In this document: piece by piece, positions 1,085 through 29,113 of the stretch
Position numbering within the stretch: position 1 is the stretch's first letter
Layout: each line of letters begins with the position of its first letter
Source of the DNA: an uncultured delta proteobacterium
GTDB lineage: Bacteria; Desulfobacterota; WTBG01; CAIYCZ01; CAIRTM01
Assembly (NCBI GenBank): GCA_963804955.1
Contig: CAWDSQ010000007.1
Coordinates: forward strand, 224,001-288,000
Length of the DNA stretch: 64,000 nt
Direction of reading: 5' to 3'
Notes under the pieces: model-generated
The model's input: the letters and a program-made list of their open reading frames with translations, nothing else
What the model was told of the DNA's origin: nothing
The model's database searches: none
Position numbers and translations under genes: made by a program

Positions 1085-1245
1085 GCCCGGAACCACCTTC
1101 TATCCGTGCCGGTATTATAACCGTGCATCCACATACTGCGTGCGCCAATTGGCGTCAGTCCAACCAGTTTAAGAAGCCTTCAATCTACAAAGACGGTGCT
1201 TTTAGACCCAGGGCGGGTACGAAGGGCTTCACCAACTGGAATGCC
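1085..1245 (-). ncRNA. Putative bridge/seek RNA with target-binding and donor-binding loops (ends approximate)
   Basis: Minus-strand segments ACCCGCCCT (1210-1218) and TGTAG (1185-1189) match the target halves; CAGTAT (1133-1138) and ATAGAAG (1097-1103) match the donor halves; the target pair is enclosed by a stem and the donor pair flanks an internal hairpin. Confidence 0.75.
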
Positions 1246-28613: not shown

Positions 28614-28706
28614 GATGGCAGTCTCCTCCTCTATGGGTTGTGTCAGTTCGTGGCGGTTGTAATCCGTCGTTTTTATTATGTTGTTATCAAAAATTATCTC
28701 AGATGT

Positions 28707-28999
28707 AGATACTATGAAGGAAAGGATCATTTGACAGGCGTCAGTCTCGGGTATGCTTATAAAGTCAGATCAATAACTTTTAGCATAAGGAGACAAACAT
28801 GGCGAACTATCAAATGATCCAAACCGAGGCAAAGGATAGCACAGGTAAGCAGGTTTTGTACATATCCCTTGAACTGTCCAACAAGAAATGGAAACTGACG
28901 TTTGGGGACGGGCAACGCAGGAGGGAGCGAACAATAACATCCGCAGATCTTGCAATGGTTCAGGAAGAGCTGGTCAAGGCGAGGAAGCATTTTAGACTG
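28707..28999 (+). mobile_element. Truncated IS110 copy (left end plus first ~66 transposase codons)
   Basis: High similarity to the reverse complement of 2220-2514, ending at TTTAGACTG. Confidence 0.9.
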
Positions 29000-29033
29000 T
29001 ATGCCAATCTGCCATTTTTTGCTTGTATGATTC

Positions 29034-29113
29034 CGGCGGGTTGGCGCCCGCCCTACGTTCTACCTTCTGTGTTTTGCATTATGTGGTGGATTCGCTGCGC
29101 TTAATCCACCCTA
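29034..29113. repeat. Two CTAC-ended REP hairpins; the first is an empty IS110 target
   Basis: CGGCGGGTTGGCGCCCGCCCTAC and GGTGGATT...AATCCACCCTAC. Confidence 0.7.

Follow-up and report, generated by a model that had tools for sequence, protein, structure and literature searches.

A 64,000-nucleotide (nt) stretch of DNA from an uncultured delta proteobacterium (GCA_963804955.1, CAWDSQ010000007.1, positions 224,001–288,000, forward strand; hereafter referred to as the window) contains an IS110-family element inserted beside a REP-like hairpin. We describe its layout as IS1111-like, because a short LE, the transposase gene and a long RE follow one another and the ends carry subterminal inverted repeats. 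Coordinates are given on the + strand, and the RNA discussed below is read on the minus (transposase) strand. The locus comprises the following features.

952–971, + strand: target half-site, consisting of the REP-like hairpin GGCGGGT-TAGC-ACCCGTC (952–969) and the core CT (970–971); this flank is common to all four genomic copies
972–2514, − strand: whole IS110-family element, 1543 bp with one copy of the CT core counted
972–1277, − strand: RE non-coding tail, 306 nt, 3′ of the transposase
973–980, + strand: RE arm of the subterminal inverted repeat, CTATGAGG, read from the sequence and the copy alignment
1278–2420, − strand: transposase (recombinase) gene, an open reading frame of 380 residues, intact in the window copy
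2421–2514, − strand: LE, about 92 nt without the core (2421–2512)
2501–2509: LE arm of the subterminal inverted repeat, CCTTCACAG in the window copy and CCTTCATAG in the other copies
2513–2517, + strand: second core copy CT (2513–2514) and right target ACA (2515–2517), from the copy alignment and empty REP sites

Element boundaries and target site

The host genome holds four full copies of the element and one fragment. Aligned with their flanks, the four copies are co-terminal and the flanks diverge outside them, with the left junction reading GGCGGGTTRGCACCCGCC-CT|TCTATGAGG... and the right junction ...CAYAGTAT-CT|AC on the + strand. There are 16 REP-like sites in the genome, of which four are occupied and three are empty with the ending ...CTAC, the empty sites reading ...ACCCGCC-CT-AC. 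From the four-copy alignment and the empty sites, we thus assigned CT as the core, 972–2514 as the element and the 3′ arm of the REP hairpin as the target. The element is bounded by this 2-nt core at 970–971 and 2513–2514, without further target duplication or long terminal inverted repeats, the flanking-core arrangement of IS110 elements, and the junctions assumed in an earlier, sequence-only reading of the locus were correct. On the right side, CTAC alone is common to the four copies, and A2517 fits the guide in the window copy only.

The subterminal repeat arms, CTATGAGG and CCTTCA(C/T)AG, form an imperfect 8–9-bp repeat with one indel, within the 7–17-bp range that serves as the IS1111 criterion, and the ends conserved across the family are CCTCATAG and CTATGAAGG. 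Among the four host copies, the RNA core is 100% identical, whereas the transposase genes of the other copies carry 9–22 substitutions. The window copy has T968 where its guide expects C, and its LE repeat reads CTGTGA, compared with CTATGA in the three other copies and nearly all relatives.

Remnants and repeats accompany these copies. In one full copy (L004, G000:C30:22288-26860), a 1-nt insertion near the equivalent of window position 2101 introduces ten stops into the transposase frame, and the RNA core is unchanged. A truncated second copy in the window (28705–29003, + strand) consists of the LE junction TGTAG|ATACTATG and about the first 65 transposase codons, is 93% identical to the full copy and lacks the RNA gene; about 30 nt beyond its end at 29003 lies an unoccupied REP target in the opposite orientation, GGCGGGTTGGCGCCCGCC-CT-AC (29035–29056). 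At L002 (G000:C24), a solo LE junction, GTAG|ATACTATGAAGGAA, is found 36 bp upstream of the true LE and may have been left behind when the element earlier inserted or excised. Finally, the host flanks at 2519–2594 and 863–919 are repeated elsewhere in the genome, with 84–88% identity on C26 and C30 and 82% on C22, which suggests that the REP target belongs to a larger repeated unit.

RNA architecture

The RE tail contains a two-module RNA core, which is recognized over its full length by a covariance model (R1, described below). Its segments, all on the − strand unless stated otherwise, are as follows.

1089–1239: bridge/seek RNA core, comprising closing stem, target loop, linker hairpin and donor loop (R1, 117 bits, full model)
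1164–1239: target-binding module, in which P1 and P2 close an internal loop
1234–1239 and 1164–1169: P1, CCAGUU (1239–1234) paired with AACUGG (1169–1164) in the fold; on the + strand, AACTGG and CCAGTT
1221–1230 and 1173–1181: P2, GAAGCCCUUC (1230–1221) paired with GAAGGCUUC (1181–1173); on the + strand, GAAGGGCTTC and GAAGCCTTC
1195–1208: distal hairpin of the target module, from the fold
1210–1218: LTG, ACCCGCCCU (1218–1210), in the same sense as the + strand left target (7 nt) and CT
963–971, + strand: DNA partner of the LTG, ACCCGTCCT, target arm and core
1185–1189: RTG, UGUAG (1189–1185), the reverse complement of CT and ACA; its DNA partner is CTACA at 2513–2517
1183–1184: handshake positions of the target loop (TBL), AU, identical to the first two LE bases
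1143–1154: linker hairpin between the two loops, CGCC-AAUU-GGCG, 87% paired in 95 distinct rows
1131–1139: LDG, GCAGUAUGU (1139–1131); its DNA partner is ACAGTATCT at 2506–2514
1133–1136: effective part of the LDG, GUAU, which pairs with LE bases 1–4
1106–1129: distal hairpin of the donor loop (DBL), CGGU-UAUAAU-ACCG at about 1109–1125, 97–99% paired, with all five inner pairs changed on both sides
1097–1103: RDG, AUAGAAG (1103–1097), identical to the RE terminus and core on the transposase strand; its DNA partner is CTTCTAT at 970–976
1095–1096: handshake positions of the DBL, GU, with G1096 equal to the first base of the right flank
1072–1092: 3′ hairpin, UUCCGGG-CAAGGUU-CCCGGAA, from single-sequence folds

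The sequence-only reading had proposed these two bipartite loops with their guide segments and stems, and direct reading of the sequence located every motif and stem that it listed. In folds of the tail, a check that it had suggested, the stems and hairpins are seen, but minimum free energy (MFE) folds of the window RNA are no better than those of shuffled sequences (z = −0.80 and −0.33). MFE folding alone is thus not distinctive; the structure is supported by homologues and not by thermodynamics. In the family alignment (95 distinct rows), the five inner helices are 87–99% paired with many compensatory changes, inner P2 and the target distal hairpin reaching 91–99%. Over the whole structure, 311 cells are changed on both sides, compared with 143 in shuffles; the structure outscores all 500 shuffles on four of five measures, and the proportion of paired cells drops from 79.9% to 33–44% when the partners are slid by 1–3 columns. 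The G–U pairs are consistent with the transposase strand only. The outer helices P1 and P2, which the earlier reading had named as the closing stems of loop 1, are present in the window RNA. They align poorly across the family (47–59% paired), and their support lies in per-sequence duplex energies, which are −21.4 kcal/mol for cognate and −13.7 kcal/mol for non-cognate closing stems among 90 distinct RNAs. A search by eye revealed no convincing stem closing the donor loop.

The 3′ hairpin may mark the 3′ end of the RNA. A hairpin with an MFE of −8 or lower lies 3′ of the DBL in 76% of 90 relatives, with a mean z-score of only −0.9. About 25 nt past the window hairpin, a AACCGGCC-like motif (about 1040–1056, − strand) is conserved in many relatives. 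A scan of 700–2900 against Rfam (E up to 10) returned only chance-level matches, none of them relevant.

Distribution of the RNA family

Relatives were collected from metagenome-assembled genomes (MAGs) of several phyla (34 loci, 39–58% identity) and from metagenomes, where 592 of 601 candidates were relatives and the best 80 were taken further. The covariance model R1 was built from 25 sequences and searched against 100 sources; L012-L016, L038, L040, L043-L045, L057, L078, L095, L122 and L123 were left out on grounds of source number, short downstream DNA or duplication. In 99 of the 100 sources, 98 of them relatives' loci, R1 gave a match that lies 3′ of the transposase and shares its strand; the match spanned the full model in 98. 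The positive sources include 26 MAG loci from several phyla and 73 of the 80 metagenome loci; the single source without a match was L028. When R1 was run with stricter filters on 150 further genomes from the same phylum, it gave no match, so that the element is sporadic in that phylum, a result that is silent on its absence elsewhere.

Guide–DNA covariation

In the window, the LTG matches its own flank and core at 8/9 positions, as the sequence-only reading had noted, and the consensus target ACCCGCC+CT, present in the other three copies and at the empty site C24(-):75042, at 9/9. It matches a further empty site, C7:253034, which differs upstream, at 8/9. The RDG matches its partner at 7/7. 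In 20,000 mononucleotide shuffles of the 306-nt tail, 262 contained the LTG at no more than one mismatch and 1008 the exact RDG; LTG and RTG occurred within 50 nt of each other in 13, LDG (at most two mismatches) and RDG in 51, and both loops, with all four guide matches, in none.

We then compared guides and DNA across the relatives. Their junctions were located not by the guides but by two generic motifs of the element ends, AG|A...TATG on the upstream side and, downstream of the RNA, ATAGRAG, which left the tested positions free. Guide matches were scored as Hamming counts on the covariance-model alignment. Elements with a TTAG-type RE candidate alone (for example, L048 and L067) were scored as having no RE, and L023 and L101, in which the RNA is interrupted by an insertion or cut by a contig end, were excluded from the guide statistics. 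Since related sequences are not independent, the shuffle counts given below overstate significance.

Both target guides track the host DNA. The LTG matches the right flank at 5.76 of 7 positions on average, compared with 3.18 in shuffles (0/5000 shuffles reach this value; n = 84, 70 distinct LTGs), although in 14 of the 84 elements only 3–4 of 7 positions match. For the RTG and the left flank, the corresponding values are 3.72 and 1.51 of 5 (0/5000; n = 79, 49 distinct RTGs), and the highest-ranking mutual-information pairs involve RTG positions, whose identity is 0.94 to left-flank position −1 and 0.85 to position −2. Natural retargeting is seen among L018, L042 and L056, whose LTGs AUUACGG, GUUACUG and AUAGCUG face the flanks CCGTAAT, CAGTAAC and CAGCTAT. 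These three and L049, L052 and L062 are close relatives, two of them in one MAG, with differing LTG 7-mers that each fit their own flank.

The donor guides behave unequally. Across the family, RDG and RE terminus hardly vary, and RDG position 5 (A or G) equals the last RE base in 85/85 elements, ten of them G–G. In the LDG, positions 4–6 covary with LE bases 2–4 (0/2000 shuffles each) and position 7 is a conserved U facing an invariant base, whereas positions 1–3 and the core positions 8 and 9 match the donor at chance level in the family guide statistics. The extra LDG match at position 2 in the window copy is due to its private LE substitution. Donor recognition may thus rest largely on the RDG and on contacts between the protein and the inverted repeats, the LDG being weak.

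The bases following the 3′ guides are linked to the opposite DNA partner. The first base past the RTG is invariably A, the same as LE base 1, and the second equals LE base 2 in 87% of elements, compared with 73% in shuffles (0/5000). The base past the RDG agrees with the first base of the flank in 77% of elements, compared with 32% in shuffles (0/5000), with U opposite G in 12 further cases, and is the third-highest mutual-information pair. In an unbiased scan of all RNA columns against 40 DNA positions, contacts of the model account for six of the top ten pairs, on the expected strands, and a few non-model pairs score level with the weaker model contacts.

Together with the conserved RNA and the helix changes, this guide covariation means that the region's proposed role as a bispecific guide was supported in every computational test run. 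The covariation between guide segments, flanks and ends that the earlier reading had called for in homologues exists for the LTG, the RTG, RDG position 5 and LDG positions 4–6. Its UGUAG is the reverse complement of core and right flank CTACA, and its ATAGAAG is the exact reverse complement of CTTCTAT. Its 7/9 donor match for the LDG was overstated: positions 4–6 covary and position 7 is conserved, and the remaining positions do not depart from chance.

The recombinase

The transposase passes the NCBIfam model NF033542, 'IS110 family RNA-guided transposase', at 171 bits (cutoff 140). Among Pfam models, it matches PF02371 at 1.8e-16 and, weakly and under the cutoff, PF01548 (24.7 bits). Its C-terminal domain, including a YSSG motif, matches chains of solved structures, those of ISCro4 (4e-8) and IS621 (1e-7). 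In an alignment with 14 relatives, from which L029 was left out because its translation contains stop codons, E25, E78 and D120 are invariant and D117 is near-invariant. The catalytic residues of IS621 are D11, E60, D102, D105 and S241 (PMC11208158), and we assigned the corresponding residues to these by motif, without a structure. Residue 25 (window ~2346–2348) is a Glu within an L-E-L-S motif, at the place of Asp11 in IS621, and appears from the sequence to be the first acidic residue of a RuvC-like tetrad.

The protein is 50% identical to a copy on a Cupriavidus plasmid and only 24–29% identical, over 43–77% of its length, to the named enterobacterial ISEc45, ISSso6 and ISEc66. Compared by motif and by eye only, it resembles the ISfinder elements ISRel9, ISMno20, ISAzs35, ISMno25 and ISGdi7 and unnamed entries of Supplementary Table 1 of Durrant et al. 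(rows 962–976) in the motifs GRDGFW, RRAKTDR.D and EQGISKAGN, and by eye the unnamed row 970 resembles it closely. IS1111A (row 398), IS4321 (row 556) and IS621 (row 219) stand elsewhere in that table, whose row order is not a tree. As judged from sequence, the recombinase appears to belong to a clade separate from the named enterobacterial IS110/IS1111 elements.

Expression and promoters

A 151-nt contig from a lake-water metatranscriptome covers 1086–1236 with one difference and includes no other part of the element. It is a weak hint of RNA expression, because contigs are blind to strand and ends and DNA may contaminate RNA libraries. In another sequencing run, a 312-nt contig over 2110–2416 with ten differences most likely derives from a relative's transposase. 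No weight attaches to the portions of the element that such contigs leave uncovered.

We found no promoter-like site directly upstream of the RNA. Two other sites were noted.

2463–2490, − strand: promoter-like TTGACA-16-TATGCT inside LE, upstream of the transposase gene, with 10/12 matches
986–991, − strand: −35-like TTGACA, 14 nt from the RE end as counted on the sequence

The first is weak by itself, since one such site was found in a region where 1.6 are expected by chance. The second would, in a circle joining RE to LE, give TTGACA-17-TACTGT (TACTAT in the other copies), a putative junction promoter. Among the 85 relatives with a located RE, TTGACA (at most one mismatch) ending 11–17 nt from the RE end gave 85 matches, counted per match and not per element, most of them at 16–17 nt. 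The geometry of a junction promoter may differ within the family, as the hexamer lies at 14 nt here and mostly at 16–17 nt elsewhere.

Alternative explanations

The matches could be by-products of terminal repeats in a 3′ UTR or a regulatory structure of the transposase mRNA, a reading in line with the failure to find a separate promoter and with the occurrence of CCTTCTAT in the RNA gene as well as at the RE junction. Inner repeats, however, cannot explain how 70 distinct LTGs and 49 distinct RTGs track host flanks, nor do any of the 20,000 shuffles reproduce both loops, and we regard this explanation as very improbable. A closer competitor, although still an unlikely one, is a seekRNA that guides by target only, through loop 1, with the second module serving as a protein-binding scaffold and the transposase reading the ends by way of the subterminal inverted repeats and the target halves that flank them. 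The chance-level donor match at LDG positions 1–3, 8 and 9 fits such a scaffold, and the near-invariance of the RDG and the RE terminus means that their identity could reflect a conserved protein site. Moreover, an 82-nt seekRNA was enough for ISEc11 transposition, with the target required in the donor flanks (PMC11187229). What speaks against a pure scaffold is that, in all 85 elements, RDG position 5 follows the last RE base in its switch from A to G, that LDG positions 4–6 covary with LE bases 2–4, and that the base past the RDG tracks the target while the base past the RTG tracks LE, a cross-talk that a scaffold does not predict.

A different question is whether the window copy itself is a decaying, poorly mobile element within a family whose RNA is real, a reading that is compatible with a bispecific guide and that we consider doubtful, if far from negligible. 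It draws on T968 in place of the expected C, on the deviant LE repeat, and on the frameshifted L004 and the truncated copy at 28705–29003. Set against these are the intact reading frame, the RNA core shared with the other copies, and the behaviour of IS621, which tolerates some single mismatches, though perfect matches are strongly favoured (PMC11208160). Given the target mismatch and the LE substitution, the window copy may nonetheless be a poor donor.

Mechanistic model

We consider it highly likely that 972–2514 is an IS110-family element with an IS1111-like layout, whose 3′ non-coding end encodes a bispecific bridge (seek) RNA. Drawing on the sequence anatomy, element boundaries, conservation, and structural and guide–DNA covariation described above, we propose that an RNA of about 150–170 nt, transcribed on the transposase strand, would act as the bispecific guide. 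In its internal target loop, closed by a stem of about 15 bp, the 9-nt LTG would pair with one strand of the REP arm and the CT core, and the 4–5-nt RTG with the other strand, at the core and right target. In the donor loop, the 7-nt RDG would pair with the core and RE terminus and the short LDG (about 4 nt) with the LE bases next to the core. Just 3′ of the RTG, one or two bases would match LE, and one base 3′ of the RDG would match the target, a handshake as in IS621 that would stabilise the exchanged strands. The recombinase, with a putative RuvC-like E-E-D-D tetrad and the Ser of YSSG, would act at the CT core, exchanging strands of the circularised element with those of REP sites of the form ACCCGCC-CT-AC. 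RNA production, protein binding, the circular intermediate and the chemistry are expected by analogy with IS621, ISEc11 and ISEc21.

Relationship to known systems

Bridge and seek RNAs of IS110/IS1111 elements have already been published (PMC11208160, PMC11187229), and the natural, potentially reprogrammable guide envisaged in the sequence-only reading is a published property of these elements and not a new idea. Bridge RNAs, sited in RE, were predicted in 93% of IS1111-group elements in a study that also describes the two-strand guide scheme, long 5′ and short 3′ (Durrant et al. 2024, PMC11208160). Handshake guides and catalytic residues have been described as well (Hiraizumi et al. 2024, PMC11208158). 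In IS1111 elements, the seekRNA is located 3′ of the transposase, and within it the segment matching the top strand comes 5′ of the one matching the bottom strand (Siddiquee et al. 2024, PMC11187229).

The present element shares with IS621 (PMC11208160, PMC11208158) the CT core, the REP target, the 9-nt LTG and 4–5-nt RTG, and the arrangement of two loops, each with a longer 5′ guide in the sense of LT/LD and core and a shorter 3′ guide that is the reverse complement of core and RT/RD. The handshake positions 3′ of the RTG and RDG also agree, as does a protein with a RuvC-like domain and a Tnp domain carrying the catalytic Ser. In contrast to IS621, whose RNA is in LE, the RNA here lies in RE, 3′ of the transposase, and the assignment of guides to strands is inverted relative to the transposase direction, although it equals the IS621 scheme when viewed from the opposite DNA orientation. 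In addition, the LDG is effectively about 4 nt, mostly without a core match, there is no clear donor-loop closing stem, the subterminal inverted repeats are longer, and the 380-residue protein is related in sequence in the C-terminal domain only (E = 1e-7) and has Glu as its first acidic residue.

In other respects, the element resembles the IS1111 seekRNA elements ISEc11, ISPa11, ISKpn4 and ISPst6 (PMC11187229): it has a long non-coding region 3′ of the transposase (306 nt, compared with about 92 for LE) and subterminal repeats, and its LTG, which can pair with the transposase-sense strand, is positioned 5′ of the RTG, the two matches overlapping at the insertion point. Natural retargeting among relatives and a −35 near the RE end suggesting a junction promoter are further likenesses (PMC11187229). 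It differs from them in the length of its transposase (380 compared with 330–350 residues), in the ~24–29% identity, over part of the length, to named enterobacterial IS110/IS1111 proteins and, relative to the account in PMC11187229 of target matches only, in possessing a second, donor-matching loop with covariation. By description and not by sequence, it is also similar to ISPpu9/Ssr9 of Pseudomonas putida, an IS110-family member that resides in REP sequences and has a small-RNA gene 3′ of the transposase (Pares-Guillen et al. 2025, PMC12288879).

ISRel9, ISMno20, ISAzs35, ISMno25 and ISGdi7 are absent from the six elements inspected in PMC11208160, and the main texts of the literature searched do not mention them. 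The bridge RNA of this clade thus appears not to have been individually described, although Supplementary Table 5 of Durrant et al. may list a predicted RNA for ISRel9, ISMno25 or ISGdi7. The DBL motif was not found in the Durrant supplementary files, nor were the peptide motifs in the Siddiquee source data.

Sequence comparison supports well the conclusion that the window RNA is a real, natural bridge/seek RNA, which belongs to a system already known and comes from a clade on which we found no experimental study. More tentatively, with the balance tilted against it, the ISRel9/ISMno25/ISGdi7-like clade, with more than 590 metagenomic relatives, might be deep-branching and constitute a third architectural type. 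Such a type would combine an IS1111-like layout with its own recombinase lineage, with Glu for the first catalytic Asp, and with a hybrid donor recognition, in which a 7-nt RDG and an LDG of about 4 nt without core pairing act alongside a protein that reads the subterminal repeats. It would keep the IS621 handshake, and its RNA would be a discrete species of about 150 nt, in amounts far exceeding those of the transposase mRNA.

The established picture of how IS110/IS1111 elements work is left unchanged by our analysis. What it contributes is a natural bridge RNA, fully annotated, from a clade without an experimental study that we could find, and an alignment of about 100 relatives together with the targets and donors of each. 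Orthologues of this kind can feed the engineering of programmable recombinases and the comparison of IS110-type with IS1111-type architecture. In the host genome, four REP-targeted insertions are accounted for, and across the family the handshake positions and the two-strand target reading of IS621 are conserved far from IS621, whereas the left donor guide is not.
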